Below, one piece after another: positions 11,053 through 60,029 of a DNA stretch of 64,000 bases. The position numbers and the translations under genes are program-made. Position 1 is the stretch's first letter. Every line of letters starts with the position of its first letter. Source of the stretch: Convolutriloba macropyga (Eukaryota); NCBI RefSeq assembly GCF_964194025.1, contig NC_134475.1:44888001-44952000 (forward strand), in the 5' to 3' direction. The notes below the pieces were generated by a model that was not told the DNA's origin, did not search any database, and worked only from the letters and a program-made list of their open reading frames with translations.

Positions 11053-11419
11053 AAACTTTTCACTTCATCTCCCAGTGAAGACAAAAATTTTTCTACAACA
11101 AGGGACACTATCTAAATCATTACACAGTAGGATTTAAATATACGGATATCTTTTTTTAGATGAGAACAAATTCTATTAAAAATTTTGTCTAATAGCTTGG
11201 CTCCTGGTAGCTAGGATTGAATATTTAGATCTTTTTTACCCTTATGAGCACTACAGAACACTCGTCTTGAATGGCTCGTCTTTGTTAACCCCTAAGGTTA
11301 CTACAGAAGACGATAACCCTCAAATAGCTCAAATATCGGTATGCTAGGATTGAACATAATAAATCATTTTTGACCTTTAGGGCACTACAGAACACGTTAA
11401 ATACCGAAACAATAATTTT

Positions 11420-14400
11420 CTTTGGGACCAAGTAAGAGTGAATAAGTTTTTTTATCCCCTATAACCATTTGAGAAACGCTAAGTATCGATTAGGTAGGCT
11501 GCAGGGGGCCAGGTATGAATGAATATGCTTTTTACCCCCCATAACCCTCTTGAGAAACGCTAAGTATCAATTTATTAGGCTGCAGGAGGACCAAGAATGA
11601 GTGAATAATTTTTTTTACCCTCTACACTATTTTTCAGAAATTCTAAGTATAGATTAGATAGGCTGCAGGGGGGCCAGGTATGAATGAATAGGTTTTTTAC
11701 CCCTATACCCTTTTTGAGAAACGCTAAGTATCGATTAGGTAGGCTGCAGGGGACCAGATATGAATGAGAAAGTTTTTTTTATACCCTGTACCTATTTTGA
11801 GAAATGCTAAGTATCGAATAGGTAGGCTGCAGGGAGACCAGGTATGAAAGAAAAAGTTTTTTGTACCGTCTCTACCCCTTTTGAGAAACGCTAAGTATCA
11901 ATTAGGTAGGCTGCAGGGGGACCAGGTTTGAATGAATAAGTTTTTCTGCGCCCTAAACCCCTTTGAGAAATGCTAAGTATCGAATAGGTAGGCTGCAGGG
12001 AGTCCAGGTATGAATGAAACAGTTTTTTTTACCATCTATGTCCCTTTTGAGAAACACTAAGTATGGATTATGTAGGCTGCAGGGGGACCAGGTACGAACG
12101 AATACGTTTTTTACCCTCTCTGCCCCTTTTGAGAAACGCTAAGTATCGATTAGGTAGGCTGCACGGGGAGCACGTATATATGAATATGTTTTTTTATCCA
12201 CTATACTCCTTTTGAGAAACGCTAAGTATCGAATAGGTAGGCTGCAGGGAGACCAAGTATGAACGAATAAGTTTTTTTACCCTCTGTATCCCTTTTGAGA
12301 AACGCTAAGTATGGATTAGATAGGCTGCAGGGAGACCAGGTATGAATGAGTAAGTTCTTTTACCCTCTGTATCCCTTTTGAGAAACGCTAAGTATGGATT
12401 AGATAGGCTGCAGGGGGACCAGGTATGAATGAGTAAGTTCTTTACTCACTATACCTCTTTTGAGAAACGCTAAGTACCGATTAGGTAGGCTGCAGGGGGA
12501 CCAGATATGAATGAATAAGTGTTTTACCCTCTATATGCCTTTTGAGAAAAGCTAAGTATCGATTAAGTAGGCTACAAGGAGACCAGGTATGAATGAAAAA
12601 GTTATTTTACCCTCTCTATCCCTTTTGAGAAACGCTAAGTATCAATTAGGTAGGCTGCAGGGGGACCAGGTTTGAATGAATAAGTTTTTCTGCGCCCTAA
12701 ACCCCTTTGAGAAATGCTAAGTATCGAATAGGAAGGCTGCAGGGAGACCAGGTATGAATGAAACAGTTTTTTTTACCATCTATTACCCTTTTGAGAAACA
12801 CTAAGCATCGATTAGGTAGGCTGCAGGGGGACCAGGTACGAATGAATGAAGTTTTTTACCCTCTCTACCCCTTTTGAGAAACGCTAAGTATCGATTAGGT
12901 AGGCTGCAGGGGGAGCACGTATATATGAAAATGTTTTTTATCCACTATACCCCTTTTGAGAAACACTAAGTATCAATTAGGTAGGCTGCAGGGAGACCAG
13001 GTATGAATGAATAAGTTTTTTTACCATCTCTACCCTTTTGAGAAACGCTAAATATCGATTAGGTAGGCTGCAGGGGGTATGATTGAATAAGTTTTTTACC
13101 CTCTACACTACTTTTCAGAAATTCTAAGTATAGATTAGATAGGCTGCAGGGCGGCCAGGTAGGAATGAATAGGTTTTTTTTACCCCTATACCATTTTTGA
13201 GAAACGCTAAGTATCGATTAGGTAGGCTGCAGGGGACCAGATATGAATGAGAAAGTTTTTTTTATCCCCTATACCCATTTTGAGAAATGCTAAGTATCAA
13301 ATAGGTAGGCTTCAGGGAGACCAGGTATTAGCGAATAAGTTTTTTACCCTCTACACTACTTTTCAGAAATTCTAAGTATGGATTAGATAGGCTGCAGGGG
13401 GACCAGGTATGAATGAGTAAGTTTTTTTACCCTCTGTATCCCTTTTGAGAAACGCTAAGTATTGATTAGATAGGCTGCAGGGGGACCAGGTATGAATGAG
13501 TAAGTTTTTTACTCCCTATACCTCTTTTGAGAAACGCTAAGTACCGAATAGGTAGGCTGCAGGGCGACCAGATATGAATGAATAAGTGTTTTACCCTCTA
13601 TATGCCTTTTGAGAAAAGCTAAGTATCGATTAAGTAGGCTACAAGGAGACCAAGTATCAATGAAAAGTTTTTTTACCCTCTCTATCCCTTTTGAGAAACG
13701 CTAAGTATCAATTAGGTAGGCTGCAGGGGGACCAGGTTTGAATGAAAACGTTTTTTTTACCATCTATACCCCTTTTGGGAAACGCTAAGTATCGAATAGG
13801 TAGGCTGCAGGGGGAGCACGTATATATGAAAATGTTTTTTATCCACTATACCCCTTTTGAGAAACACTAAGTATCAATTAGGTAGGCTGCAGGGAGACCA
13901 GGTATGAATGAATAAGTTTTTTAACCTCTACACTACTTTTCAGAAATTCTAATTATAGATTAGATAGGCTGCAGGGGGGTCAGGTATGAATGAATAGGTT
14001 TTTCTTACATCTATACCCTTTTTGAGAAACGCTAAGTATCGATTAGGTAGGCTGGAGGGGACAAGATATGAATGAGAAAATTTTTTCATCCCCTATACCC
14101 ATTTTGAGAAACGCTAAGTATCGATTAGGTAGGCTGCAGGGGGACCAGGTACGAATGAATAAATTTTTTACCCTCTACACTACTTTTCAGAAATTCTAAG
14201 TATAGATTAGATAGGCTGCAGGGGGGCCAGGTATGAATGAATAGGTTTTTTTTACCCCTATACCCTCTTTGAGAAACGCTAAGTATCGATTATGTAGGCT
14301 GCAGGGGACCAGATATGAATGAGAAAGTTTTTTTTATCCCCTATACCCATTTTGAGAAATGCTAAGTATCGAATAGGTAGGCTGCAGGGAGACCAGGTAT

Positions 14401-17400
14401 GAACGAATAAGTTTTTTTACCCTCTGTATCCCTTTTAAGAAACGCTACGTATGGATTAGATAGGCTGCAGGGGGACCAGGTATGAATGAGTAAGTTTTTT
14501 TACCCTCTGTATCCCTTTTGAGAAACGCTGAGTATGGATTAGATAGGCTGCAGGGGGACCAGGTATGAATGAGTAAGTTTTTTACTGCCTATACTTCTTT
14601 TGAGAAACGCTAAGTACCGATTAGGTAGGCTGCAGGGGGACCATGCTTGAATGAATAAGTTTTTCTGCGCCCTACACCCCTCTGAGAAATGCTAAGTATC
14701 GAATAGGTAGGCTGCAGGGAGACCAAGTATGAATGAAACAGTTTTTTTACCATCTATATCCCTTTTGAGAAACGCTAAGTACCGATTAGGTAGGCTGCAG
14801 GGGGACCATGCTTGAATGAATAAGTTTTTCTGCGCCCTACACCCCTCTGAGAAATGCTAAGTATCGAATAGGTAGGCTGCAGGGAGACCAAGTATGAATG
14901 AAACAGTTTTTTTACCATCTATATCCCTTTTGAGAAACGCTAAGTACCGATTAGGTAGGCTGCAGGGGGACCATGCTTGAATGAATAAGTTTTTCTGCGC
15001 CCTACACCCCTCTGAGAAATGCTAAGTATCGATTAGGTAGGTTTCAGGGAGGCCAGGTATGAATGAATAAGTTTTTTTACCATCTCTACCCCTTTTGAGA
15101 AACGCTAAGTATCGATTAGGTAGGCTGCAGGGGGACAAAGTATGAATGAATAAGTTTTTTACCCTCTCTTCCCCTTTTGAGAAACGCTAAGTATCGATTA
15201 GGTAGGCTGCAGGGAGACCAGGTATGAACGAAACAGTTTTTTTACCATCTATATCCCTTTTGAGAAACACTAAGTATCGATTAGGTAGGCTGAAGGGGGA
15301 CCAGGTACGAATGAATACGTTTTTTACCCTCTCTACCCCTTTTGAGAAACGCTAAGTATCGATTAGGTAGGCCGCAGGGAGACCAGGTATGAACGAAACA
15401 GTTTTTTTTACCATCTATAACCCTTTTGAGAAACGCTAAGTATCAATTAGGTAGGCTGCAGGGAGACCAGGTATGAAAGAATAACTTTTTTTTCACCCTC
15501 TATATCGCTTTTGAGAAACACTAAGTATCAATCAGGTAGGCTTCAGGAGGACCAGGTATGAACGAATAGGTTTTTTTACCCTCTAGATCCCTTTTGAGAA
15601 ACGCTAAGTTTGGATTAGATAGGCTGCAGGGTGACCAGGTATGAATTAGTAAGTTTTTAACTCCCTATACCCCTTTTGAGAAACGCTAAGTATCGATTAG
15701 GTAGGCTGTAGGGGGGCCAGATATGAATGAATAAAGTTTTCACGCTCTAAATTCCTTTTGAGAAACGCTAAGTATCGATTAAGTAGGCTACAGGGAGACC
15801 AGTTATGAATGAATAAGTTTTTTTACCCTCTATACCATTTTTGAGAAACACTAATTATCGATTAGGTAGGCTGCATGGGGACCAGGTATGAATGAAAAGG
15901 TTTTTTTACCCTCTCTATCCCTTTTGAGAAACGCTAAGTATCAATTAGGTAGGCTGCAGGGGGACCAGGTTTGGATAAATAAGTTTTTCTGCGCCCTACA
16001 CCCCTTTGAGAAATGCTAAGTATCGGATAGGTAGGCTGCAGGGAGATCAGTTATAAATGAAACAGTTTTTTTACCATCTATATCCCTTTTGAGAAAGACT
16101 AAGTATCGATTAGGTAGGCTGCAGGGGGACCAGGTATGAACGAATAAGTTTTTTCCCTCTCTATCCCTTTTGAGAAACGCTTAGTATCGATTAGGAAGGC
16201 TGCAGGGGGACCAGGTATGAATGAATAAGTTTTTTTTCCCTTTCTACCCCTTTTTAGAAACGCTAAGTATCGATTATGTAGGCTGCAGGGAGACCAGGTA
16301 TGAATGAATAAGTTAAGATTTTTAACCCTCTCTAACCCTTTTGGGAAACGCTTAGTATTGATTAGGTAGGCTGCAGGGAGACCAGGTATGAATGAATAAG
16401 TTTTTTTATCCTCTCTACCTTTTTTGAGAAACGCTTAGTATCAATTAGGTAGGCTGCAGGGAGACCAGGTATGAATGGATAAGTTTTTTTCCCTTTCTAC
16501 CCCTTTTTAGAAACGCTAAGTATCGATTATGTAGGCTGCAGGGAGACCAGGTATGAATGAATAAGTTAAGATTTTTAACCCTCTCTACCCCTTTTGGGAA
16601 ACGCTTAGTATTGATTAGGTAGGCTGCAGGGAGACCAGGTATGAATGAATAAGTTTTTTTATCCTCTCTACCTTTTTTTAGAAACGCTAAGTATCGATTA
16701 GGTAGGCTGCAGGGGGAGCAGGTATAAAATGAATATGTTTTTACCCACTATACTGCTTTTGAGAAACGCTAAGTATCGATTAGGTAGGCTGAAGGGAGAC
16801 CAGGTATGAATGAAAAAGTTTTTTTATCCTCTCTACCCCTTTTGAGAAACGCTTGGTATCGATTAGGTAGTCTGCAGGGAGACCAGGTATGAATGAATAA
16901 GTTTTTTTACCCTCTCTACCCCTTTTGAGAAACGCTTAGTATCGATTAGGTAGGCTGCAGGGGGACCAGATATGAATGAATAATTTTTTTTCCCTCTCTA
17001 CCCCTTTTTAGAAACGCTAAGTATCGATTAAGTAGGCTGCAGGGAGACCAGGTATGAATGAATAAGTTTTCTACCCTCTCTACCCCTTTTGGGAAACGCT
17101 TAGTATCGATTAGGTAGGCTGCAGGGAGACCAGGTATGAATGAAACGGTTTCTTTTATCCTCTCTACCCCTTTTGAAAAACGCTTAGTATCAATTAGGTA
17201 GGCTGCAGGGAGACCAGGTATGAATGGATAAGTTTTTTTACCCTCTCTACCCCTTTTTAGAAACGCTAAGTATCGATTAGGTAGGCTGCAGGGGGAGCAC
17301 GTATCAATGAATATGTTTTTTACCCACTATACCTCTTTTTTTAGAAACGGTAATTATCGATTAGGTAGGCTGTAGGGGGACCAGGTACGAATGAATAAGT

Positions 17401-17545
17401 TCTTTTACCCCTACACCCCTTTTGAGAAATGCTAAGTATCGACTAGGTAGGCTTCAGGGGGACAAGGTATGAACGAATAATTTTTCTACCCCAAATTTTC
17501 CTTTTGAGAAATTCTTAGTATCGATTAGGTAGGCCGCAGGGGAAT
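11420..17545 (+). repeat. Satellite A array 1 (~82-83 bp unit, about 74 copies)
   Basis: Consensus GAGAAACGCTAAGTATCGATTAGGTAGGCTGCAGGGGGACCAGGTATGAATGAATAAG(T)nACCCTCTATACCCCTTTT. Confidence 0.97.
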
Positions 17546-18247
17546 GGATGATTTAGTTTTAAAAAAGATAGTGTAAAACTCATTTCCTCATTGTCATGGA
17601 ATAGAGACGCGAAAACAACAAGTTCATAGTTACCTCCGTAGATCATCTGTGTTGATTGTAGCAATCTGTCATGATCTACCCTACAACTGACCTAAGTGTC
17701 TAAGTGATCTCAGTGACTGTTTGGGAATGGTGATAAAATTTTGTGAACTGGTGCCGTCTATTTTTCACAATAGAATTTCTCTAAACCAGCTAGTTCTACT
17801 TCCTGATCAATGGGGTTGCGAAAGTCAAGAAGGCAAAGAGTTTACTGTCGTCAAGCGAGTACAGTTCCTGTTACTCTTTGGACTATTTATCTCAATACTT
17901 GTTTCTCCAGACAAGACTTACTAATAAATTCCCCAAAATATAGTAATCATGAACAATTAATTGTACAAATAAGAGCTTCATCTAATGAATTGGAAAGAAT
18001 AATTCCTTCCGAGAAGATTGGGAAAAGATTTAGAAGTAAAGTTTGCCGTAAAAAAGATAGCAAGTTTTAACAGCACTAACCATAGCATCCTTTTCTTTCC
18101 CCCTTGCTCCCACCTTCTGCTCCCATACCCATCCTGCTCCCTACTTGCTTTCAGTTTTGCTCTCCGTTGAGCTCTACCCTCGCTCCCAGGTTTGATACTT
18201 CGCCCTGCTCCCACCTCAGTCTCCGGCATGCTCTCCTCTCCGCTTCG
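17545..18247. other. Unique block U (copy U1) between satellites A and B
   Basis: Non-tandem sequence found four times (17545, 19640, 29903, 32239); ends in a pyrimidine-rich TGCTCCC-motif tract. Confidence 0.85.
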
Positions 18248-19439
18248 TAGCTTAAGACCCAAAACACAAGTTATTTTTCACCTTTATATATATACACTCT
18301 TTATATGTTCAAGTTAAAATTCGTTTAGGTAACCAGCAGTTAACTTAGGATCCAGGGTACGAGTTATTTTTTATCAATACTCTTTATATGTACAAGTTAA
18401 AAATCGCTTAGGTAACCAGCAGGTATCTAGGATCCAATACAAAAGGTGTTTTTCACCAAAACTATTCAAATGTACAAGTTGAAACTCGCTTAGGTAACCA
18501 GCCGGTAGCTTAGAATCATATACACAAGGTATTTGTCACCAATACTCTTCATCTGTACAATTTAAATATCGCTTAGGTTACCAGCACGTAGATTAGGATT
18601 CAATACACAACTTATTTTCCACCAACCCTCTTTAGATGTATAAGTTAAATCTCGCTTAGGTAACCAGCAGTTAGCTTAGAATCCAATTCACAAGGTATTT
18701 TTCACCAAAATTCTTCGTATGTACAAGTTAAAACTCGCTTGGGCAACCAGCAGGTAGCTTGGGATCGAATACACAAGTTTTTTTTCACCAATACTCTTCA
18801 TATGTACAAGTTAAAAATCGCCTAGGTAACCAGCAGGTAGATTAGGATCCAATACACTAGTTATTTTCCACCAACCCTCTGTTTATGTACAAGTTAAAAC
18901 ACGCTTAGGTAACCACCAGTTTGCTTAGGATCCAATACACAAGATATTTTTTTACCAATACTCTTCAAATGTTCAAGTTAAAAACTGCTTATGTAAACAG
19001 CAGGTAGCTTAGGATCCAAAACACAAGGTACTTTTCACCAATGCTCTTCATATGTACAAGATAAAACTCGCTTAGGTAACCAGCAGGCAGCTTAGGATCC
19101 AAAACACAAGCTGTTTTTCACCAATACTCTTCAAATGTACAAGTTAAAACTCGCTTAAAAAACCAGCAGGTATTCCAGTATCCAATACACAAGTAATATT
19201 TTACCAATACTCTTCATATGTACAAGTTAAAACTCACTTGGGTAACCAGCAGGTAGCTTAGCATCCAAGACACAAGTTATCTTTTACCAATACATTTCAC
19301 ATTTGCAAGTTAAAAATCGCTTAGGTAACCAGCAGGTAGATTAGGATCCAATACACAAGTTATTTTCCAACAACCCTCTTTATATTTACAAGTTAAAACC
19401 CGCTTAGGTAACCAGCAGGTAGCTTAGGATCCAATACAC
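18248..19439 (+). repeat. Satellite B array 1 (~83 bp unit, about 14 copies)
   Basis: Consensus TGTACAAGTTAAAACTCGCTTAGGTAACCAGCAGGTAGCTTAGGATCCAATACACAAGTTATTTTTCACCAATACTCTTCATA. Confidence 0.95.
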
Positions 19440-19640
19440 GTTAAGTATCGGTTAGGTAGGATGCAGGGAGACCAGGTATGAATGAATAGGTTCTTTTACC
19501 CCCTACACTCCATTTGAGAAATGCTATGTATCGATTAGGTAGGCTGCAGGGTGACCAAGTATGAACGAATAATTTCTTTACCCCTATTTCCATTTTGAGA
19601 AATGCTAAGAATCGATTAGGTAGGCTGCAGGGGAATGGAT
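19440..19640 (+). repeat. Short satellite A array (about 2.5 units)
   Basis: Abrupt B-to-A switch at CCAATACAC|GTTAAGTATCG. Confidence 0.9.
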
Positions 19641-20082
19641 GAATTAGTTTTACACCGTAAAGGGTTTGCGCAAAAAAGTGCACCTTGAGAATTAGGAGAA
19701 AAGCTTTTTTCCTCATTGTCATGGAATAGAGACGCAAAAACAACAAGTTCATAGTTACCTCCGTAGATCATCTGTGTTGATGGTAGCAATCTGTCATAAT
19801 CTACCCTACAACTGATCTAAGTGTCTAATTGAGCTCAGTGACTGTTTGGGAATGGTGATGCGTGTTAAAATTTTGTAAACTGGTGTCGTCTATTTTTCGC
19901 AATAGAGTTTCTCTAAACCAGCAAGGTCCACTTCCTGATCAATGGGGTTGCCAAAGTCAAGAAGGCAAAGAGTTTACTGGCGTTAAGCGAGTACAGTTCC
20001 TGTTACTCTTTGAACTGTTTATCTCAATACTTGTTTCTCCAGACAAGACTTTCTCATAAATTCCCCAAAATATAGTAATCAT
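19620..20082 (-). pseudogene. OTU-like cysteine protease pseudogene within block U' (also about 32220-32681; more decayed in U1 and U2)
   Basis: Minus-strand frame from ATG at 20082 gives SGSGPCWFRE (19909-19938) and then LRSVVG*IM; after a frameshift, YGGNYELVVFASLF (19724-19765). These resemble the OTU motifs GDGNCLFR, LR..V...M and WGG..EL..F..LF. Confidence 0.45.
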
Positions 20083-20419
20083 GAACAATCAATTGTACAA
20101 ATAAGAGCTTCATCTAATGAAGTGGAAAGAATAATTCCTTCCGTGAAGATTGAGAAAAGATTTAGAAGTAAAGTTTGCCGTAAAAAAGATAGAAAGTTTT
20201 AACAGAATTAACCATAAAATCCTTTTCTGTCCCCCTTGCTCCCACCTTCTGCCCCATACCCATCCTGCTCCCTACCTGCTTTCAGTTTTAATCTCTGTTG
20301 AGCTCTACCCTCGCTCCCAGGTTCGATCCACCGCCCTGCTCCCACCTCGGTCTCCGGCATGCTCTCCACGGATTGTTCTCCGTTTCGCTCACACTTCTGC
20401 TTCCCACACTGCTCTAGGA

Positions 20420-20857
20420 CGTAGCTTAAGACCCAATACACAAGATATTTTTCACCATTACTCTTTATGTGTTTAAGGTAAAACTCGCTTAGGTAACCAT
20501 CAGTTAGCTTAGGATCCAAGGTACAAGTTATTTTTGATCAATACTCTTCATATGTACAAGTTAAAATTCGCTTAGGTAACCAGCAGGTATCTTAGGATCC
20601 AATACAAAAGGTATTTTTCACCAATACTATTCATATGTACAAGTTAAAACTCGCTTGGGTAACCAGCCGGTAGCTTAGAATCCAATACACAAGGTATTTC
20701 TCGCCAATACTCTTCATATGTACAATTTAAAAATCGCTTAGGTTACCAGCACGTAGATTAGGATCCAATACACAAGTTATTTTCCACCAACCCTCTTTAT
20801 ATGTATAAGTTAAAATTCGCTTAGGTAACCAGCAGGTAGCTTAGAATCCAATCAGAA
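20420..20857 (+). repeat. Satellite B array 2 (about 5 units), cut by the duplication junction
   Basis: B consensus; ends abruptly where polB sequence restarts. Confidence 0.9.
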
Positions 20858-22339
20858 TATATGGTAAACAGAGCTTTCAAAAAAACATGTGAAGGTAAAC
20901 GTAACCGGATCAAGGTCAAGCTGGTACATGATGAACATGAAGCATTGAAATCGACTAGCAGACCTTAGGTGAAAACTTTTCAAATCATTGCCAATGATTT
21001 GGCTACAGTAAGTCTCAACAAGACCAAAATATTATATGATAAACCTACAACCGTTGGAGCATGTATCCTCGACCTCTCGAAAAAATTCGTGTTTGAGTTT
21101 CACTACAAAACCATGTAACACAACTTTGAATGCAAAATCCTTTATTCTGACACGGATTAGTTTGTTTACGAGGGGCAAATAGAGGATTTTTTGTGCACAT
21201 AGAATCAAAACAAATGAAGGAGACGTTTGACTTGTCCAACTTTCCAAAGAACCATCAGCAATACGATGAAACCAACGCAAAAGTGACGCTCAAGTTCAAG
21301 AATGAGATGGCTGGTTGAACAGTGTCTGAATTTGTAGGTCTCAAGCCAAAACACTACTCGATCAAACTTTCGGAAGGTAAACATTTCTTTTTTTATTCGC
21401 TAGCTTTTTGCTTCGCAGGCGTCAAGAAAAATCAGTGAGACGACGTGATTGATGATGCACTTTTTGTCTGCTTTTTCTTTAGTAGCTACAATTGAAATCA
21501 GTTTTCTAAAATTGATCGGAAATTTTTTTCTCAAGTGATGGGAAACAGCCAGCTAAAGGTGTCACCAAAGAAGCTGGCCAGAGAATAACTCATGAATTGT
21601 ACAAGCAAGTTCTCATGGGTGGAGATACTGTGTGCCTGGTAAATACAAGAATTGCATCAAGCAAACATCAGTTGATGACAGTTATTAACAACAAAAAATC
21701 GTTGTCCGGATACGACGACAAGCGCTATCTTTGCCAGGACAAAATAACGACGCTACCATACGGCCATGAGCAGTTGCGAGATGAAATGTTTGCAAAACAG
21801 ATTATTGCAACCCAGATTGGGGTTCAAGTGATAAGAGTGAGAACGAAGTCCTGGCAGAGTCTTCCTTGGGACAAAGACCATCACCTACTCATTATACTCC
21901 ACAACCAGAGCTGCAAGGGTTTTGGTCTCCCCCTTAACTGGATCTCAACCAACGATCATACAGCAATGATGAACTTGAAGGGTACTTGATTGACTTTGAA
22001 CTGTTGAGTGAACAAGAAGACACTTCCGACCACGACAGGTGCTTATTTTTAGACGATGAAGCCCTGGAATCAGATTGAAGTGAAAGTATTCTCGACATTT
22101 GCACTACCTCAGCAGTGTTTTCTCTCGAAAACCCTCCTGATGAGCCACGAAAAAAAAAAACAAAATGCAGGTCAGACTCGAATCTGGACAAGAACAGCGT
22201 CCTTAATATTACACCAAAAAAATATCTCACAAGCCCAAAACAGTTTGAAATTGTTTCCGACGACGACAGTGATATTCCTCAGAAAATCAAGAAGCGGTCA
22301 GTAATTGAACTGGACTTTGATAGTGCTGGTCCGCTATAA
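20858..22339 (+). pseudogene. polB: Duplicated 3' part of polB
   Basis: Copy of 9485-10963; has YSDTD; the intron-2 acceptor is mutated (CAG to CAA). Confidence 0.9.
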
Positions 22340-22799
22340 ATTCATGACTCTATCTACCGTTCATGACAATCAGTTATGTGGTAATGTGGTTGTCTACCTT
22401 CCGGTTTGGCCTACATACCGTAAATAAAAAACTTTTCACTTCATCTCCCAGTGAAGTCAAAAATTTTTCTACAACAAGGGACACTATCTAAATCATTACA
22501 CAGTAGGATTTAAATAAACGGATATCTTTTTTTAGATGAGTTCAAATTCTATTGAAAATTTTGTCTAATAGCTTGGCTCCTGGTAGCTAGGATTGAATAT
22601 TTAGATCTTTTTTACCCTTATGAGCACTACAGAACACTCGTCTTGAATGGCTCGGCTTTGTTAACCCCTAAGGTTACTACAGAAGACGATAACCCTCAAA
22701 TAGCTCAAATATCGGTATGCTAGGATTGAACATAATAAATCATTTTTGACCTTTAGGGCACTACAGAACACGTTAAATACCGAAACAATAATTTTCTTA

Positions 22800-28700: not shown

Positions 28701-29903
28701 TCCCTTTTGAGAAACGCTTAGTATCGATTAGGAAGGCTGCAGGGGGACCAGGTATGAATGAATAAGTTTTTTTCCCTTTCTACCCCTTTTTAGAAACGCT
28801 AAGTATCGATTATGTAGGCTGCAGGGAGACCAGGTATGAATGAATAAGTTTTTTTACCCTCTCTACCCCTTTTGGGAAACGCTTAGTATCGATTAGGTAG
28901 GCTGCAGGGAGACCAGGTATGAATGAATAAGTTTTTTTTATCCTCTCTACCCTTTTTGAGAAACGCTTAGTATTAATTAGGTAGGCTGCAGGGAGACCAG
29001 GTATGAATGTTTAAGTTTTTTAACCCTCTCTACCCCTTTTTAGAAACGCTAAGTATCGATTAGGTAGGCTGCAGGGGGAGCACGTATAAATGAATATGTT
29101 TTTTACCCACTATACTGCTTTTGAGAAACGCTAAGTATCGATTAGGTAGGCTGAAGGGAGACCAGGTATGAATGAATAAGTTTTTTTTATCCTCTCTACC
29201 CCTTTTGAGAAACGCTTAGTATCGATTAGGTAGTCTGCAGGGAGACCAGGTATGAATGAATAAGTTTTTTAACCCTCTCTACCCCTTTTGAGAAACGCTC
29301 AGTATCGATTAGGTAGGCTGCAGGGGGACCAGATATGAATGAATAAGTTTTTTCCCTCTCTACCCCTTTTTAGAAACGCTAAGTATTGATTAAGTAGGCT
29401 GCAGGGAGACCAGTTATGAATGAATAAGATTTTTTACCCTCTCTACCCCTTTTGGGAAACGCTTAGTATCGATTAGGTAGGCTGCAGGGAGACCAGGTAT
29501 GAATGAAAGGGTTTTTTATCCTCTCTACCCCTTTTGAAAAACGCTTAGTATCAATTAGGTAGGCTGCAGGGAGACCAGGTATGAATGGATAAGTTTTTTT
29601 ACCCTCTCTACCCCTTTTTAGAAACGCTAAGTATCGATTAGGTAGGCTGCAGGGGGAGCACGTATAAATGAATATGTTTTTTACCCACTATACCTCTTTT
29701 GAGAAACGGTAATTATCGATTAGGTAGGCTGTAGGGGGACCAGGAATGAATGAATAAGTTCTTTTACCCCTACACCCCTTTTGAGAAATGCTAAGTATCG
29801 ACTAGGTAGGCTTCAGGGGGACCAGGTATGAACAAATAATTTTTCTACCCCAAATTTCCCTTTTGAGAAATTCTTAGTATCGATTGGGTAGGCTGCGGGG
29901 GAA
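22800..29903 (+). repeat. Satellite A array 2 (about 86 copies)
   Basis: Same consensus and largely the same order of unit variants as array 1. Confidence 0.97.
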
Positions 29904-30605
29904 TGGATGATTTAGTTTTAAAAAAGATAGTGTAAAACTCATTTCCTCATTGTCATGGAATAGAGACGCGAAAACAACAAGTTCATAGTTACCTCCGTAG
30001 ATCATCTGTGTTGATTGTAGCAATCTGTCATGATCTACACTACAACTGACCTAAGTGTCTAAGTGATCTCAGTGACTCTTTGGGAATGGTGATAAAATTT
30101 TGTGAACTGGTGCCGTCTATTTTTCACAATAGAATTTCTCTAAACCAGCTAGTTCTACTTCCTGATCAATGGGGTTGCGAAAGTCAAGAAGCCAAAGAGT
30201 TTACTGTCGTCAAGCGAGTACAGTTCCTGTTACTCTTTGGACTATTTATCTCAATACTTGTTTCTCCAGACAAGACTTACTAATAAATTCCCCAAAATAT
30301 AGTAATCATGAACAATTAATTGTAGAAATAAGAGCTTCATCTAATGAATTGGAAAGAATAATTCCTTCCGAGAAGATTGGGAAAAGATTTAGAAGTAAAG
30401 TTTGCCGTAAAAAAGATAGCAAGTTTTAACAGCACTAACCATAGCATCCTTTTCTTTCCCCCTTGCTCCCACCTTCTGCTCCCATACCCATCCTGCTCCC
30501 TACTTGCTTTCAGTTTTGCTCTCCGTTGAGCTCTACCCTCGCTCCCAGGTTTGATACTTCGCCCTGCTCCCACCTCAGTCTCCGGCATGCTCTCCTCTCC
30601 GCTTC

Positions 30606-32039
30606 GTAGCTTAAGACCCAAAACACAAGTTATTTTTCACCAATACTCTTTATATGTTCAAGGTAAAATTCGTTTAGGTAACCAGCAGTTAACTTAGGAT
30701 CCAGGGTACGAGTTATCTTTTATCAATACTCTTTATATGTTCAAGTTGAAAATCGCTTAGGTAACCAGCAGGTATCTAGGATCCAATACAAAAGGTGTTT
30801 TTCACCAAAACTATTCAAATGTACAAGTTGAAATTCGCTTGGGTAACCAGCAGGTAGATTAGAATCCAATACACAAGTTATTTTCCACCAACCCTTTTTA
30901 TATATACAAGTTAAAACTCGCTTAGGTAACCAGCCGGTAGCTTAGAATCGTATACACAAGGTATTTGTCACCAATACTCTTCATCTGTACAATTAAAAAA
31001 TCGCTTAGGTTACCAGCACGTAGATTAGGATTCAATACACAACTTATTTTCCACCAACCCTCTTTAGATGTATAAGTTAAAACTCGCTTAGGTAACCAGC
31101 AGTTAGCTTAGAATCCAATTCACAAGGTAGTTTTCACCAAAACTCTTCATATGTACAAGTTAAAACTCGCTTGCGTAACCATCGGGTAGCTTGGGATCAA
31201 ATACACCACTTATTTTTCACCAATTCTCTTCATATGTACAAGTTAAAAATCGCCTAGGTAATCAGCAGGTAGATTAGGATCCAATACACAAGTTATTTTC
31301 CACCAACCCTCTTTTTATAAACAAGTTAAAACTCGCTTAGGTAACCAGCAGGTAGCTTAGGATCCAAAACACTAGGTACTTTTCACCAATTCTCTTCATA
31401 TGTACAAGTTAAAAATCGCCTAGGTAACCAGCAGGTAGATTAGGATCCAATACACTAGTTATTTTCCACCAACCCTCTGTTTATGTACAAGTTAAAACTC
31501 GCTTAGGTAACCACCAGTTTGCTTAGGATCCAATACACAAGATATTTTTTTTACCAATACTCTTCAAATGTTCAAGTTAAAAACTGCTTAGGTAAACAGC
31601 AGGTAGCTTAGGATCCAAAACACAAGGTACTTTTCACCAATGCTCTTCATATGTACAAGATAAAACTCGCTTAGGTAACCAGCAGGCAGCTTAGGATCCA
31701 AAACACAAGCTGTTTGTCACCAATACTCTTCAAATGTACAAGTTAAAACTCGCTTAAAAAACCAGCAGGTATTTCAGTATCCAATACACAAGTAATATTT
31801 TACCAATACTCTTCATATGTACAAGTTAAAACTCACTTGGGTAACCAGCAGGTAGCTTAGCATCCAAGACACAAGTTATCTTTTACCAATACATTTCACA
31901 TTTGCAAGTTAAAAATCGCTTAGGTAACCAGCAGGTAGATTAGGATCCAATACACAAGTTATTTTCCAACAACCCTCTTTATATTTACAAGTTAAAACCC
32001 GCTTAGGTAACCAGCAGGTAGCTTAGGATCCAATACACG
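30606..32039 (+). repeat. Satellite B array 3 (about 17 copies)
   Basis: B consensus; followed by a short A array (32040-32239) and block U' (32239-33020). Confidence 0.95.
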
Positions 32040-33019
32040 TTAAGTATCGATTAGGTAGGATGCAGGGAGACCAGGTATGAATGAATAGGTTCTTTTACCC
32101 CCTACACTCCATTTGAGAAATGCTATGTATCGATTAGGTAGGCTGCAGGGGGACCAAGTATGAACGAATAATTTCTTCACCCCTATTTCCATTTTGAGAA
32201 ATGCTAAGTATCGATTAGTTAGGCTGCAGGGGAATGGATGAATTAGTTTTACACCGTAAAGGGTTTGCGCAAAAAAGTGCACTTTGAGAATTAGGAGAAA
32301 AGCTTTTTTCCTCATTGTCATGGAATAGAGACGCAAAAACAACAAGTTCATAGCTACCTCCGTAGATCATCTGTGTTGATGGTAGCAATCTGTCATAATC
32401 TACCCTACAACTGATCTAAGTGTCTAATTGAGCTCAGTGACTGTTTGGGAATGGTGATGCGTGTTAAAATTTTGTAAACTGGTGTCGTCTATTTTTCGCA
32501 ATAGAGTTTCTCTAAACCAGCAAGGTCCACTTCCTGATCAATGGGGTTGCCAAAGTCAAGAAGGCAAAGAGTTTACTGGCGTTAAGAGAGTACAGTTCCT
32601 GTTACTCTTTGAACTGTTTATCTCAATACTTGTTTCTCCAGACAAGACTTTCTCATAAATTCCCCAAAATATAGTAATCATGAACAATTAATTGTACAAA
32701 TAAGAGCTTCATCTAATGAAGTGGAAAGAATAATTCCTTCCGTGAAGATTGAGAAAAGATTTAGAAGTAAAGTTTGCCGTAAAAAAGATAGAAAGTTTTA
32801 ACAGAATTAACCATAAAATCCTTTTCTGTCCCCCTTGCTCCCACCTTCTGCCCCATACCCATCCTGCTCCCTACTTGCTTTCAGTTTTAATCTCTGTTGA
32901 GCTCTACCCTCGCTCCCAGGTTCGATCCACCGCCCTGCTCCCAACTCGGTCTCCGGCATGCTCTCCACGGATTGTTCTCCGTTTCGCTCACACTTCTGCT
33001 TCCCACACTGCTCTAGGAC

Positions 33020-36000
33020 GTAGCTTATGACCCAATACACAAGATATTTTTCACCATTACTCTTTATGTGTTTAAGGTAAAACTCGCTTAGGTAACCATC
33101 AGTTAGCTTAGGATCCAAGGTACAAGTTATTTTTGATCAATACTCTTCATATGTACAAGTTAAAATTCGCTTAGGTAACCAGCAGGTATCTTAGGATCCA
33201 ATACAAAAGGTATTTTTCACCAATACTATTCATATGTACAAGTTAAAACTCGCTTGGGTAACCAGCCGGTAGCTTAGAATCCAATACACAAGGTATTTCT
33301 CACCAATACTCTTCATATGTACAATTTAAAAATCGCTTAGGTTACCAGCACGTAGATTAGGATCCAATACACAAGTTATTTTCCACCAACCCTCTTTATA
33401 TGCATAAGTTAAAATTCGCTTAGGTAACCAGCAGGTAGCTTAGAATCCAATCACAAGGTAAATTTCACCAAAACTCTTCATATGTACAAGTTAAAAAAAT
33501 TGCTTAGGTTACCAGCACGTAGATTAGGATCCAATGCACAAGTTATTTTCCACCAGCCCTCTTTATATGTATAACTTAAAATTCGCTTAGGTAACCAGCA
33601 GGTAGCTTAGAATCCAATTCACAAGGTAATTTTCACCAAAACTCTTCATATGTACAAGTTAAAATTCGCTTGCGTAACCATCGGGTAGCTTGGGATCGAA
33701 TACATCACTTATTTTTCACCAATTCTCTTCATATGTACAAGTTAAAAATCGCCTAGGTAATCAGCAGGTAGATTAGGATCCATTACACAAGTTATTTTCC
33801 ACCAACCCTCTATTTATAAACAAGTTAAAACTCGCTTAGGTAACCAGCAGGTAGCTTAGGGTCCAATACATAAGATATTTTTCTACCAACACTCTTCAAA
33901 TGTACAAGTTAAAAACTGCTTATGTAACCAGCAGGTAGCTTAAGATCCAAAACACAATGTACTTTTCACCAATGCTCTTCATATGTACAAGTTAAAACTC
34001 GCTTAGGTAACTATCAGGCAGCTTAGGATCCAATACACAAGCTGTTTTTCACCAAAACTCTTCATATGTACAAGTTAAAAAAATTGCTTAGGTTACCAGC
34101 ACGTAGATTAGGATCCAATGCACAAGTTATTTTCCACCAGCCCTCTTTATATGTATAACTTAAAATTCGCTTAGGTAACCAGCAGGTAGCTTAGAATCCA
34201 ATTCACAAGGTAATTTTCACCAAAACTCTTCATATGTACAAGTTAAAACTCGCTTGCGTAACCATCGGGTAGCTTGGGACCGAATACACCGCTTATTTTT
34301 CACCAATTCTCTTCATATGTACAAGTTAAAATTCGCCTAGGTAATCAGCAGGTAGATTAGGATCCATTACACAAGTTATTTTCCACCAACCCTCTATTTA
34401 TAAACAAGTTAAAACTCGCTTAGGTAACCAGCAGGTAGCTTAGGGTCCAATACATAAGATATTTTTCTACCAATACTCTTCAAATGTACAAGTTAAAAAC
34501 TGCTTAATTAACCAGCAGGTAGCTTAAGATCCAAAACACTATGTACTTTTCACCAATGCTCTTCATATGTACAAGTTAAAACGCGCTTAGGTAACCAGCC
34601 GAAAGCTTAGAATCCAATACACAAGGTATATCTCACCAACACTCTTGGTATGTACAAGTTAAAAATCGCTTAGGTTACCAGCCCGTAGATTAGGATCCAA
34701 TACACAAGTTGTTTTCACCAAAACTCTTCATATGTACAAGTTAAAACTCGCTTGAGTAACCAGCGGGTAGCTTGGGATCGAATACACAACTTATTTTTCA
34801 CCAATACTCTTCATATGTACAAGTTAAAAATCGCCTAGGTAATCAGCAGGTAGATTAGGATCCAATACACAAGTTATTTTCCACCAACCCTCTTTTTATA
34901 AACAAGTTAAAACTCGCTTAGGTAACCAGCAGGTAGCTTAGGATCCAAAACACTAGGTACTTTTCACCAATGCTCTTTATATGTACAAGTTAAAACTCGC
35001 TTAGGTAACCATCAGGCAGCTTAGGATCCAATAAACAAGCTGTTTTTCACCAATACTCTTCATATGTACAAGTTAAAAAATTGCTTAGGTTACCAGCACG
35101 TAGATTAGGATCCAATACACAAGTTATTTTCCACCAGCCCTCTTTATATGTATAACTTAAAATTCGCTTAGGTAACCAGCAGGTAGCTTAGAATCCAATT
35201 CACAAGGTAGTTTTCACCAAAACTCTTCATATGTACAAGTTAAAACTCGCTTGCGTAACCATCGGGTAGCTTGGGATCAAATACACCACTTATTTTTCAC
35301 CAATTCTCTTCATATGTACAAGTTAAAAATCGCCTAGGTAATCAGCAGGCAGATTAGGATCCAATACACAAGTTATTTTCCACCAACCCTCTATTTATAA
35401 ACAAGTTAAAACTCGCTTAGGTAACCAGCAGGTAGCTTAGGGTCCAATACAGAAGATATTTTTCTACCAATACTCTTCAAATGTACAAGTTAAAAACTGC
35501 TTAGATAACAAGCAGGTAGCTTAGGATCCAAAAGACTATGTACTTTTCACCAATGCTCTTCATATGTACATGTTGAAACTCGATTAGGTAACCAGCCGGT
35601 AGCTTAGAATCCAATACACAAGGTATTTCTCACAAATACTCTTGGTATGTACAAGTTAAAAATTGCTTAGGTTACCAGCTCGTAGATTAGGATCCAAAAC
35701 ACAAGTTATTTTTACCAAAACTCTTCATATGTACAAGTTAAAACTTGCTTGCGTAACCAGCGGGTAGCTTAGGATCGAATACACAACTTATTTTTCACTA
35801 ATACTCTTCATATGTACAAGTTGAAAATCGCTCAGGTAACCAGCAGGTAGCTTAGGTTCCAAGACACAAGATATTTTTCTAACAAAACTCTTCAAATGTA
35901 CAAATTAAAACTTGCTTAGGTAACCAGCAGGCAGCTTAGGATCCAGTACACAAGCTGTTTTTTACCAATTCTCTTCAAATATACAATTTTAAAACTCGCT

Positions 36001-39000
36001 TAGGTAACCAGCAGGTAGCTTAGCATCCAATACACAAGTTATCTTTTACCAATTCATTTCATATGTACAAGTTAAAAATCGTTTAGGTAAGCAGCAGGTA
36101 GATTAGGATCTAATACACAAGTTATTTTCCACCAACCCTCATTATATGCACAAGTTAAAACTCGCTTGGGTAACCAGCAGGTAGCTTAGGATCCAATACA
36201 CAAGTAATGATTTACCAATACATTTCATATGTACAAATTAAAAATCGTTTAGGTAAGCAGCAGGTAGATTAAGATCCAATACACAAGTTATTTTCCAACA
36301 ACCCTCTTCATATGTACAAGTTAAAATTGGCTTAGTTAACCAGCAGTTAACTTAGGAACCAATACACAAGGTATTTTTCACCAAAACTCTTCATATGTAC
36401 AAGTTAAATCTCGCTTGGGTTACCAGCAAGTAGCTTAGGATCCAATACAAGTTGTTTTTCGCCAATACTCTTCAAATGTACAAATTAAAAACCGCTTAGG
36501 TAACCATCAGGTAGCTTAGGATCCAAAACACAAGGTACTTTTTACCAATGATCTTCATATGTACAAGTTAAAACTCGCTTAGGTAACCGGCAGGCAGCTT
36601 AGGATCCAATACACAAGCTGTTTTTCACCAATACTCTTCAAATGTACAAGTTAAAGCTCGCTTAGGTAACCAGCAGGTATTTCAGGATCCAATACACAAG
36701 TAATATTTTACCAATACTCTTTATATGTAAAAGTTAAATTTCGCTTGGGTAACCAGCAGGTAGCTTAGAATCCAATTCACAAGGTAGTTTTCACCAAAAC
36801 TCTTCATATGTACAAATTAAAACTCGCTTGCGTAACCATCGGGTAGCTTGGGATCAAATACACCACTTTTTTTTCACCAATTCTCTTCATATGTACAAGT
36901 TAAAAATCGCCTAGGTAATCAGCAGGCAGATTAGGATCCAATACACAAGTTATTTTCCACCAACCCTCTATTTATAAACAAGTTAAAACTCGCTTAGGTA
37001 ACCAGCAGGTAGCTTAGGGTCCAATACAGAAGATATTTTTCTACCAATACTCTTCAAATGTACAAGTTAAAAACTGCTTAGATAACAAGCAGGTAGCTTA
37101 GGATCCAAAAGACTATGTACTTTTCACCAATGCTCTTCATATGTACATGTTGAAACTCGATTAGGTAACCAGCCGGTAGCTTAGAATCCAATACACAAGG
37201 TATTTCTCACAAATACTCTTGGTATGTACAAGTTAAAAATTGCTTAGGTTACCAGCTCGTAGATTAGGATCCAATACACAAGTTATTTTTACCAAAACTC
37301 TTCATATGTACAAGTTAAAACTTGCTTGCGTAACCAGCGGGTAGCTTAGGATCGAATACACAACTTATTTTTCACTAATACTCTTCATATTTACAAGTTG
37401 AAAATCGCTCAGGTAACCAGCAGGTAGCTTAGGTTCCAAGACACAAGATATTTTTCTAACAAAACTCTTCAAATGTACAAGTTAAAACTAGCTTAGGTAA
37501 CCAGCAGGCAGCTTAGGATCCAGTACACAAGCTGTTTTTTACCAATTCTCTTCAAATATACAATTTTAAAACTCGCTTAGGTAACCAGCAGGTAGCTTAG
37601 CATCCAATACACAAGTTATCTTTTACCAATTCATTTCATATGTACAAGTTAAAAATCGTTTAGGTAAGCAGCAGGTAGATTAGGATCTAATACACAAGTT
37701 ATTTTCCAACAACCCTCATTATATGCACAAGTTAAAACTCGCTTGGGTAACCAGCAGGTACCTTAGGATCCAATACACAAGTAATGATTTACCAATACAT
37801 TTCATATGTACAAATTAAAAATCGTTTAGGTAAGCAGCAGGTAGATTAAGATCCAATACACAAGTTATTTTCCAACAACCCTCTTCATATGTACAAGTTA
37901 AAATTGGCTTAGTTAACCAGCAGTTAACTTAGGAACCAATACACAAGGTATTTTTCACCAAAACTCTTCATATGTACAAGTTAAATCTCGCTTGGGTTAC
38001 CAGCAAGTAGCTTAGGATCCAATACAAGTTGTTTTTCACCAATACTCTTCAAATGTACAAATTAAAAACCGCTTAGGTAACCATCGGGTAGCTTAGGATC
38101 CAAAACACAAGGTACTTTTTACCAATGATCTTCATATGTACAAGTTAAAACTCGCTTAGGTAACCGGCAGGCAGCTTAGGATCCAATACACAAGCTGTTT
38201 TTCACCAATACTCTTCAAATGTACAAGTTAAAGCTCGCTTAGGTAACCAGCAGGTATTTCAGGATCCAATACACAAGTAATATTTTACCAATACTCTTTA
38301 TATGTACAAGTTAAATTTCGCTTGGGTAACCAGCAGATAGCTTAGCATCCAATACACAAATCATCTTTGACCAATACATTTCATATGTACAAGTTAAAAA
38401 TCGCTTAGGTAAGCACCAGGTAGATTAAGATCCAATACACAATTTATTTTCCAACAACCCTCTTTATATGTACAAGTTAAAACTGGCTTAGGTAATTAGC
38501 AGGTAGCTTAGCATCCAATACACAAATTATCTTTGACCAATACATTTCAAATGTACAAAATAAAACTCGCTTGGGTAACCAGCAGGTAGCTTAGGATCCA
38601 ATACACAAGTGATGTTTTACCAATACATTTCATATGTACACGTTAAAAATCGCTTACGTAAGCAGCAGGTAGATTAAGATCCAAAACACAAGTTATTTTC
38701 TAACAACCCTCTTCATATGTACAAGTTAAAACTGGCTTAGGTAACCAGCAGGTAGCTTAGGATCCAATACACAAGATATTTTTCACAAAAACTCTTCATA
38801 TGTACAAGTTAAATCTCGCTTGGGTAACCAGCAGGTAGCTTAGGATCCAATACAAAATGTTTTTCACCAATACTCTTCATATGTACAAATTAAAAACCGC
38901 TTAGGTAACCATCAAGTAGCTTAGGATCCAAAACAGAAGGTACTTTTTACCAATGCTCTTCATATGTACAAGTTAAAACTCGCTTAGGTAACCAGCAGGT

Positions 39001-39835
39001 AGATTAGGATCCAATACACAAGTTATTTTCCAACAACCCTCTTTATATGTACAAGTTAAAACTGGCTTAGGTAATTAGCAGGTAGCTTAGGATCCAATAC
39101 ACAAGGTATTTTTCACCAAAACTCTTCATATGTACAAGTTAAAACTCGCTTAGTAACCAGCAGTTAGCTTAGGATCCAATACAAGTTGTTTTTCACCAAT
39201 ACTCTCCATATGTACAAATTAAAAACCGCTTAGGTAACCATCAAGTACCTTAGAATCCAAAACAGAAGGTACTTTTTACCAATGCTCTTCATATGTACAA
39301 GTTAAAACTCGCTTAGGTAACCAGCAGGCAGCTTAGTGTCCAATACAAAAGCTGTTTTTCACCATACTCTTCAAATGTACAAGTTAAAACTCGCTTAGGT
39401 AACCAGCAGGTATTTCAGGATCCAATACACAAGTAATATTTTACCAATACTCTTTTTATGTACAAGTGAAAACTCGCTTGCGTAACCATGTAATCAGCAG
39501 GTAGCTTAGCATCCAATACACAAGTTATCTTTTACCAATACATTTTATATGTACAAGTTAAAAATCGCTAAGGTAAGCAGCAGGTAGATTAGTACCCAAT
39601 GCACAAGTTATTTTCCAATAACCCTCTTTAGATGTACAAGTTAAAACTCGGTTAAGTAACCAGCAGGTAGCTTAGGATCCAACACACAAGATACTTTTCT
39701 ACCAATAGTCTTCAAATGTACAAGTTAAAAACTGCTTGGGTAACCAGCAGGTAGCTTAGGATCCAATACACAAGTTATTTTTCTCAATACTCATTTATGT
39801 ACGAGTTAAAATTCGCTTCGGTAACCAACAGCTTA
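33020..39835 (+). repeat. Satellite B long array (about 82 copies) with higher-order duplications
   Basis: B consensus; fades into degenerate units up to about 39960. Confidence 0.97.
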
Positions 39836-40149
39836 TGAACAAAGACACAATTTTTTTAATCAATGCTCTAATTAGACACAATAAAAAAACTGATTGGGCA
39901 CAACCCGGCTTCTTTAGTTTGAAACAAAATTTTTACTTCACCAATACTCCGTTTATAGGCAAAGCTCGAGCAGATAAACAGAGAGCACTTTTTACGATGC
40001 ACACTGATTACGTAAAGCACAAAAGAACTTAACCTAATCACGCTTTTGTTTCTAAAAAAAACTATTAAAAGAAACTTGATCAATAAACAATAAATTGAGC
40101 AAAATTCACAGTATACAGACATTTTCAAGGTTTAGTTCAAATCAACAGC

Positions 40150-41465
40150 AGTTTCAATGGCTAAATCTGGTTTTTTAAGATTATATTATCAGAGCTTGGC
40201 GAGCTTTTGTGGCCTCTCTTCTTTCAAACTTGGCTTCTTGATAGAACGGCACTTTCTTTATTATACGCTTCAACTTTTGGTTGCGGCTGCAAAGTAATAC
40301 TCTTTTGCTTTTACCCATGCCCTTGCTGCCTCAGTGGCATTCTTTCTAGCCTCCTTCAGCTTCAACGCGCCCGCGTTGCAATAAACCCGTGCTTATTTTT
40401 CATCTTTATAGCATCTGTACATTTTTCACCTTGCTGAGCCATTGCTGTTGGAAAAAGCAGGGATGGGTTTGTTCTCATGACCCATCTCTCGGCGCTGGGG
40501 GAGAGACATGGGTTTTCAGACTCCTGTAAAACGATATAATTTGATATTAGAGATGTACACAATCGGGGATGACAATGCAATTACAGTTAGCTGTAGTGGG
40601 TAGGTACAGAAAATCAAGCAAGAGAAAGATACTCACTTTCCATAGACATTTGAAGCGAACTTTAGGAGGGTGAAGAATCGCTTTGTCTAGGCTCGTAGAG
40701 ATCTCTTTGTCAGTAGTCAAGTCGACAGCCAAATTCTCTGTACCCCGTCTAGTTATAGGGTTCCCTTCTTGATTTTAACAATCTGCGAATGAAATTTCGT
40801 CACCTGAAATTTAACCAAGTTGTTTTCTGATTTATTCAATTATATTTTGGATCTACTTCAGCTTGGCGTGCAAAATCCTTTTGCTTTCACGATCCTTTTT
40901 GACTCTTTAATCATAATAACTAGCCTGATTTGTCTAGGTCAGACAGAATTTAACTTACAATTACAACATTGTAGAATAATCAGTTTTGGAGTGATACAAA
41001 TTACGTTATATGTCACAGTAAAAGTGAGTGGGATCGAATTACCTGTCAAATTTGCTCGCTGGTAGTCCTTATTCTAATCCACTGTCAACATCGCCTGTAG
41101 TATTCAAGACAACACGAAAAAAAAAGCTTTTCTGGAATATTGTACTGGTAAACGAATTAAGAAGAGAACTGGATAACTTCCCGAAGGTAAGAGTTGCTGT
41201 AAAGTGATTAACTGTAATCTTTATAAATAGTCCAGACCGAGAATTGATTCGTTGTTTCTTCAAGTTGAACACTTGATACAGCTGTCAGCACTTACCCCCC
41301 ACAAATATGCTTTGAAGTGTCACATTATTACTCTTCCATGTTTTCGTATATTTCTTAGTTCGCCGGGTTGCTTCTGCAGAATTACAATTGTGTCAATTTG
41401 TGGTTTTAAAATGGGGCGAATGTTATTTGTAGCATGTTGTTCTTTTGCTCCACTATGGCGGCAAC
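40150..41465 (-). pseudogene. Four-exon spliced pseudogene of unknown function (exons ~41465-41296, 41094-41043, 40803-40637, 40523-~40150)
   Basis: Three GT-AG introns (donors GTAAGT, GTAATT, GTGAGT; acceptors CTACAG, TTTCAG, TTTTACAG) with compatible phases 0, 1, 0; one stop in each of exons 1-3. Confidence 0.6.
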
Positions 41466-41579
41466 TACAACTAATCTCAAAGTAAACAAATACAATTAGA
41501 CACAGCGCTTCGATAAACAGGACAATTGAAATTACTACAGTTGTAGAATTTGAACTAAATCTTCAGAGAGGCGAAAGTG

Positions 41580-41739
41580 CAAATAGCCGAACATTTTTCT
41601 TTTCCCAGAAAATGTTTTTCTCCTCCCATGACCCTTCAAACAATTCCCCAATTTTTTCGGAAAAGTGATTTTTTGGTCAAAAAGCCGAAATGTCCCCCCC
41701 CCAAACCGTAGAGGTTACTACACAGCTATGTATACTACT
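41580..41739 (-). mobile_element. Candidate right terminal inverted repeat end of the Polinton
   Basis: Reverse complement begins AGTAGTATACATAGCTGTGTAGTAACC, matching the AGTAGT terminus known for many Polintons; sequence becomes very AT-rich beyond it. Confidence 0.55.
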
Positions 41740-43050: not shown

Positions 43051-43307
43051 CCCCCGTTGAGAATTTCGTCGGAATAAAACATAAGAAATCGTCGATTTTC
43101 GTCGGTTTTACTTTGCCAAAACCGATCAAAGCCCTTACGTTCTTTTCGTCGTTTTGATCAGTTTTCGTCGGGATTCAAACGTCAGAATCGTCGGTTTTCG
43201 TCGGTTTTAAACGTAAGAAGCGTCGGTTTTCGTCGGTTTCAAAACGTAAGATGCGTCGGTTTTCGTCGGTTTTAAACGTAAGAAACGTCGGTATTTCTCA
43301 ACGCGGG
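43051..43307. mobile_element. Non-autonomous CMC/EnSpm-like DNA transposon (257 bp)
   Basis: Terminal repeats CCCCCGTTGAGAA and TTCTCAACGCGGG (12/13 match), 2-bp flanking duplication GA, internal TTTCGTCGG motifs in ~33-bp units. Confidence 0.7.
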
Positions 43308-59950: not shown

Positions 59951-60029
59951 ATTTAATAAAATTATGTGAACAATGATCTTTAGTAAATGTATTAAAAGTG
60001 TTAATTGACTAACTGACGGAAATTTGGTT

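Follow-up and report, generated by a model that had tools for sequence, protein, structure and literature searches.

In the available parts of the accounts cited here, vertebrate Mavericks (Polintons) have AGTAGT//ACTACT ends, a 6-bp target-site duplication (TSD), a mean length of 16,862 bp and flanking accessory regions (PMC8097293), and nematode Mavericks carry, by the left terminal inverted repeat (TIR), a cargo slot of 2-5 kb holding proteases and kinases (bioRxiv 10.1101/2022.07.12.499685). The central tandem repeats of the Helitron DINE-TR1 have given rise to satellites (~82.6 kb, ~540 copies; PMC9957191), the TR-2 of fowl adenovirus is an array of a 135-bp unit in 4-13 copies that lies at the right end beside accessory genes (PMC9706605), and the homologous regions (hrs) of baculoviruses are built on imperfect palindromes of ~30 bp (PMC6669502). 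Polinton cis-acting sequences beyond the termini are little described. Here we describe an inherited non-coding module in acoel Polintons, in which a block U lies between two tandem arrays; we think it reasonably probable that the downstream array, B, provides the crossover homology for swapping end cargo and that the arrays grow in place after insertion.

The window, as we call the whole stretch of DNA analysed, comprises 64,000 nucleotides of Convolutriloba macropyga (contig NC_134475.1, positions 44,888,001 to 44,952,000). Its positions 1-41739 are the greater part of a single decayed Polinton whose full length is 45,367 bp. A preliminary description had recognised a Polinton right arm with an ACTACT terminus and had predicted a left terminus upstream of the window, and both were located. 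The right TIR (41656..41739, plus strand) ends at 41739 in ...GTATACTACT and is followed by AATAAG (41740..41745, plus strand); the same six bases precede the left end, AGTAGTATAC, which lies 3.6 kb before the start of the window (L041:6373), so that a perfect 6-bp TSD flanks both ends. By every feature tested the element is a member of the Polinton/Maverick group. The TIRs bear AGTAGT...ACTACT ends, and the 23 two-ended copies, the window's included, have a 6-bp TSD with 0-2 mismatches, perfect in 19 of them (C13x, which has two right ends, was left out of this count). Fourteen of the 23 are 15.3-18.3 kb long, the extra size of longer copies being mostly arrays.

Relatives encode on the plus strand a packaging ATPase, an rve integrase (PF00665, E 1.5e-10), minor and major capsid proteins, an adenain protease (PF00770) and a zinc-finger, protein-primed PolB (PF03175, E 2.8e-08). 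The PF00770 match lies above cut-off, and that of the ATPase to Pox_A32 (E 4e-4) below it. Capsid homologs bear the name F54H12.2-like, which we take to denote the Maverick major capsid; a PDB sequence search gave no match. The PolB and integrase genes of the window's Polinton copy are homologous to those of the relatives but broken. Two broken copies of the capsid module, at 1..3104 (the 3' part of the minor capsid gene, a small core ORF, the major capsid and the adenain protease; PF00770 E 7e-05) and 3400..6450 (11% diverged from the first), precede a decayed protein-primed polB gene at 6476..10962, whose less decayed relatives show a C2H2 zinc-finger N-terminus and PF03175; all are on the plus strand. 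With 69 stops (in tblastn matches, duplicated genes included), this copy is the most decayed among those scored.

In the window's subfamily the left-end TIR is succeeded by an inverted copy of itself, and the two form an imperfect palindrome of ~130 bp (L041:6373-6500; L005, L007, L011, L012, L014, L015), and at L006:1500-1675 there is a TIR-to-TIR mini-element of ~175 bp with an apparent 6-bp TSD and no interior. Elsewhere in the window lie a 32-bp minisatellite (43161-43297), an unrelated 174-bp tandem array adjoining an assembly gap (62077-64000) and, on the minus strand at 57200-61350, broken ORFs that resemble an LTR-retrotransposon remnant. Pfam gave no such match for these ORFs; their YIDD motif we take as a hint of an LTR retrotransposon.

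Downstream of polB, a degenerate repeat-like lead-in common to the subfamily copy C11a (11100..11423) is followed by array A1 (74 units of 82-83 bp; 11424..17542), U1 (17543..18246, with a conserved non-coding core at ~17622-17916), array B1 (~14 units; 18247..19439), a short A' of 2.3 units that abuts B1 directly (19440..19632), U2 (6% diverged from U1; 19633..20420) and array B2 (5 units, truncated by a duplication junction; 20421..20852). A tandem duplicate starts with a second polB 3' end and lead-in (20858..22799; 1.6% diverged, 5 shared stops) and continues with A2 (86 units, collinear with A1 except for block gains and losses; 22800..29902), U3 (0.6% from U1; 29903..30605), B3 (17 units; 30606..32038), A'' (2.3 units; 32039..32232), U4 (0.8% from U2; 32233..33019) and B4 (82 units, with a recent internal duplication of an ~18-unit block, degenerate from ~39835; 33020..39960), all on the plus strand. 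In place of the simple order A-U-B-gene given in the preliminary description, the right arm thus reads A1-U1-B1-A'-U2-B2-(polB 3' copy)-A2-U3-B3-A''-U4-B4; U occurs in it four times, and the polB end has been duplicated. Four things escaped that description: the duplication of 11.4 kb, the conservation of the U core, the existence of a second family and the hypervariability of the cargo slot.

Arrays A and B, with units of 82-83 bp, and the unique block U do lie at the place it gave, and the homology it saw between the arrays was confirmed: the local alignment score of A against B is 43.2+/-7.0, against 28.1+/-4.7 for shuffles (200 pairs), collinear along the unit, and an A profile matches B at E 0.0012. 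It had also reported fading of the arrays at both outer ends. On the right this is clear, degenerate B units at ~39835-39960 matching the B profile at E 1e-20 and 1.6e-6; on the left it stands weakly, since a short motif of the lead-in recurs at 11128, 11212 and 11345 and the A profile finds no match in 11100-11423. Best-palindrome scores in A, B and array C of the second family show no excess over shuffled units (4.6-5.3 versus 5.2-5.7). Direct B-to-A or A-to-B junctions at which U is duplicated or deleted were seen in the window (19439/19440), in L055 (C9a) and in L088 (C10b), as expected from exchange between two homologous arrays.

The module is inherited with the element. A-U-B is present in 27 of 29 other family-1 copies, and 28 of the 29 have polB upstream; the two copies not showing A-U-B are C9a, in which A is fused to B without U, and C9b, a fragment. 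Twenty loci sampled from a search with B comprised one of family 1 and 19 of a second family, whose polB is ~70% identical at the amino acid level and in which an 84-bp array, C, takes the place of A and is followed by the U core and B; homology of C to A or B was not demonstrable. All 19 of these loci thus have C-U-B, with the full gene set in each of the 14 that were extended, and C-U-B was also present in 7/7 stretches from a B-motif list, polB being in view in 6. Local duplications aside, there is one module per element; 148 first-look U candidates put the clade at some 150 copies. The proposal that the arrays are native to the element passed both tests that the preliminary description had set it, namely that other copies should carry A-U-B and that A-U-B should not occur mostly unlinked to Polintons with its own termini: no examined locus lay outside a Polinton, and no separate termini were seen. 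The A/U/B module is native to the element, non-coding, and belongs to the right arm of one acoel Polinton clade. It is real and family-wide; its function we infer.

More distant Polinton families (capsid ~60%) lacked the module in 9/9 stretches, 4 of which showed no polB or right end, and it is thus unnecessary for Polinton life in this host. A scan of IMG/VR gave no relative. A search of the genome with Polinton capsids yielded 5997 first-look candidates and at least 4 more families, many with open capsid frames. We also observed a head-to-head pair of family-2 right arms (C2:26.3 Mb, L181-L185) and, at C13:16.8 Mb (L158-L160), an element of 23 kb that has two right ends.

Between B and the right TIR is a slot of 1.3-2.4 kb whose cargo falls into 23 DNA types among 46 copies (C9b, C7d and C11b had no usable slot sequence). 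It mostly encodes, on the minus strand, three families of orphan proteins: X (CxxC, helical, basic), Y (coiled coil) and Z, which is acidic and combines a basic tail with hydrophobic-acidic motifs. Pfam gave no match at cut-off for 9 cargo proteins, an atlas search with 2 gave no usable match, and a search with family X returned 10 homologs, all unnamed. Some cargo motifs may resemble SUMO-interacting and BET-binding motifs. The window's own cargo gene (40187..41339, minus strand) belongs to family X and is broken by a stop and frameshifts. Of the 4-exon pseudogene in the preliminary description, the broken minus-strand gene stands, and for its last two exons there are matches among the cargo ORFs found in other copies (E 7e-6 and 2e-7); the gene probably has four exons, the first two being predicted from splice signals only.

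Cargo and core are unlinked in family 1a, where cores about 90-99% identical carry unrelated cargos and permutation detects no linkage of cargo to core or U (p 0.07-0.95 in 12 segments). The last B units do follow the cargo, scoring 0.83 for pairs with the same cargo (31 pairs) against 0.64 otherwise (422 pairs), whereas the first B units show no linkage (0.82 versus 0.80), which places the switch inside B. Alternatively, units at the array edge could escape homogenisation and so appear linked to cargo. Cargo type is linked to the core in family 2 (p 0.001-0.012). There is also mosaicism within the core: the ATPase-integrase-minor capsid half of family 2 resembles that of 1a (86-98% DNA identity) and its polB half does not (~70%), while 1b shows the reverse pattern, so that left and right core halves have recombined between lineages without need of arrays. 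Together with the family-2 linkage, this makes B a favoured crossover site but not a required one.

The account that we favour runs as follows. Array B would be the shared homology at which co-resident elements cross over and thereby swap the end cargo gene, by crossover or template switching within B between replicating or integrated elements. A limit on packaging size may hold the arrays of active elements short; after insertion, unequal exchange would lengthen them into blocks that are particular to each locus and remain within the element. U, lying between convergent transcription units, would be a regulatory element under selection. A more ambitious version of this account we offer only tentatively, as it may well be wrong: array-U-array would be a selected cassette-exchange and control module, with an ultraconserved 300-bp cis element and phased repeats, in which crossovers in B swap small nuclear cargo genes, of which there would be dozens, with SUMO-interaction-like and BET-binding-like motifs, the slot would serve anti-silencing in the manner of adenovirus E4, and the repeats would give rise to arrays of satellite size after the element has become trapped.

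Several features of the slot and its surroundings were seen in passing. An extra repeat type follows B in copies of one cargo cluster (L048, which is C16, L081, L090, L103 and L111) and is amplified in C16. Just inside the TIRs of many copies of both families are outward-pointing tRNA-like stretches of several types with A-box and B-box (for example L042 ~1050-1140, L047 ~8000-8070, L074 and L080), which are missing at the window's right end. ARAGORN called no tRNA in 8 sources, and the calls of a relaxed run were discarded as noise; these stretches are possibly Pol III or insulator elements.

Three lineages with 69-83% identity in their polB 3' DNA have a ~300-bp U core that is 94% identical among them, and in 14 family-2 copies this core has 1 shared variant column against 76 in the integrase. 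Its borders are sharp, and diagnostic variants are particular to each lineage. A protein exon was rejected, as each of the six frames has 3-9 stop columns and there is no synonymous bias; a folded RNA was likewise rejected, with no folding signal and no Rfam match (the Rfam search covered 10400-21000). The U core is non-coding and more conserved than the genes; U may be a cis-regulatory element under selection, placed where the core genes of the plus strand converge with the cargo gene of the minus strand. The same conservation would suit a module that acts mainly as a transcriptional enhancer, insulator or origin, an hr-like protein-binding array for which cargo exchange at B is a by-product. 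The fixed position between convergent transcription units fits this reading, as does the constant period of 83-84 bp in A, B and C, about eight helical turns; the upstream array type, A or C, also goes together with the type of zinc-finger polB, though linkage alone explains that. The lack of excess palindromes, the single site, the existence of copy C9a without U and the presumed start of Polinton replication at the termini speak against it. We regard this reading as possible but less probable than cargo exchange through B.

It is unlikely, in our estimation, that the clade captured the arrays, a single time, as passenger minisatellites without function, with U kept alike by gene conversion between the flanking repeats and not by selection. 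The absence of the module from distant families, the sharp borders of the U core, the want of any ORF, RNA fold or Rfam match and the variation in unit number would all be expected of a passenger. However, almost all copies keep the module in a 17-kb genome that is otherwise compact, each lineage has its own diagnostic U variants, and within family 2 the U core is more conserved than the integrase.

The growth of arrays bears on the second part of the exchange account. Unit number varies about 150-fold, and the series of copies shows array growth from about 10 to 630 units. The longest A arrays reach 52.8 kb (~634 units, C5) and 26 kb (C6b), the longest B 24 kb (C7d; up to ~290 units) and the longest C 17.5 kb, each within Polinton sequence; as in satellite DNA, these are long head-to-tail arrays, locally homogenised. 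The youngest copies carry short arrays, and A length rises with the number of private substitutions (rho 0.47, p 0.027, n=22), among loci that were chosen from best matches and not at random; B length shows no trend with age (rho -0.04). C9a, with A and B fused, and C6b, with too short a piece of polB, were omitted, and two fairly young copies with 53 and 91 A units run counter to the trend. When 25 units per array were sampled, 20 or more had their best match in the same locus in 9 of 10 long A arrays; in 7 of 10 short ones under half did. Expansion after integration, as the preliminary description had proposed, is supported: long arrays are locus-specific, commoner in older copies, and reach 53 kb.

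That description had further taken the element for the birthplace of two satellites. Satellite-sized arrays of A and B do exist, but all are captive, every locus examined lying inside a Polinton or its C-U-B module and none being freed from the parent element. All 97 genome matches of one A motif fall inside known Polinton loci; for a shorter one, 661 of 690 genome-wide matches lie within the 29 Polinton copies examined, and one further match outside these, when checked, was a Polinton remnant. Of 1121 matches of a B motif, 470 are in examined copies and the further loci traced, which are part of the remainder, all belong to family 2. Contig depth summed over B words exceeds the copy-specific depth by a factor of very roughly 1,000-4,000, which is not a copy number; it only hints that there is no huge unassembled B satellite. 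Here a virus-like element is seen to generate arrays of satellite size at a stage before any has escaped, and the some 150 copies form a natural series for dating cargo breakpoints, the conserved non-coding element and array growth against insertion age.

The window itself preserves a later event. The 11.4-kb tandem duplicate of 9485-20852 begins at 20858, in the polB 3' end, and shares 5 stops with the original at 0.6-1.6% divergence, the nearest other copy being 14% away; the duplication therefore postdates decay. Array B4 contains a near-identical repeat of an 18-unit block. No contig bridges the junction 20852/20858 with 31 letters on either side; a 66-base contig (run X4) spans it at depth 36, with the B side represented by 13 letters, against a depth of 38 for the first copy, a weak indication. 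Tandem duplications of the polB 3' end with the upstream array recur independently in C7e (L115-L116), B67 (L133) and the window (20858), and the breakpoints in the window and C7e are about 26 bp apart. It is very improbable that Polintons received A and B through insertion of host satellites or of a distinct element bearing repeats, or that the duplicate is an assembly artefact: divergence within the range of allelic differences and the unbridged junction would suit an artefact, but the X4 contig and the duplications in C7e and B67 oppose it, no examined A or B locus lies outside a Polinton context or has termini of its own, and the artefact question leaves the family-level results untouched.

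Baculovirus hrs are dispersed round the viral genome, and the analogy with them in the preliminary description fails on two points: the acoel units lack the ~30-bp imperfect palindrome, and the arrays lie at one site per element, not at several. What the two share, as far as the available text goes, is AT-rich repeated non-coding units in a DNA virus (PMC6669502). Fowl adenovirus, in a related class of linear dsDNA virus, likewise has a right-end array of variable copy number, but in the available account there is one array, with no conserved spacer between two and no integration, and the likeness noted here is one of position. With DINE-TR1, as described in the accessible part of its source, the clade shares internal repeats of a mobile element that grow to tens of kb (here 52.8 kb, ~634 units); it differs in that the donor is an autonomous virus-like Polinton, the arrays occur only inside the element and total abundance is low. 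Vertebrate Mavericks and the acoel element share their end sequences, the 6-bp TSD, accessory regions at the flanks, the ATPase, integrase, capsids, protease, pPolB and a size near 17 kb; unlike them, the acoel copies have all core genes on one strand, and the available text makes no mention of array-U-array between polB and an accessory gene (PMC8097293). Nematode Mavericks, in the part of the account available, resemble the acoel clade in a terminal, poorly conserved slot with intron-containing, exchanged cargo and signs of recombination (bioRxiv 10.1101/2022.07.12.499685); the acoel slot is instead at the right end, smaller at 1.3-2.4 kb, bounded by a tandem array, and filled by three orphan families, whose small proteins are basic, coiled-coil or acidic. 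A literature search, its scope lying outside Repbase, the original Polinton papers and supplements, which may describe internal repeats, found no paper on such a Polinton module, nor was one found in the available text of PMC13130569, PMC8547959, PMC12220804, PMC12910113, PMC8502044 or bioRxiv 10.64898/2026.10.13.758929. The finding is thus partly new: as far as these sources go, cargo slots in Mavericks, satellites from Helitron repeats and a right-end array in an adenovirus were already known separately, and their combination in a Polinton appears to be new.
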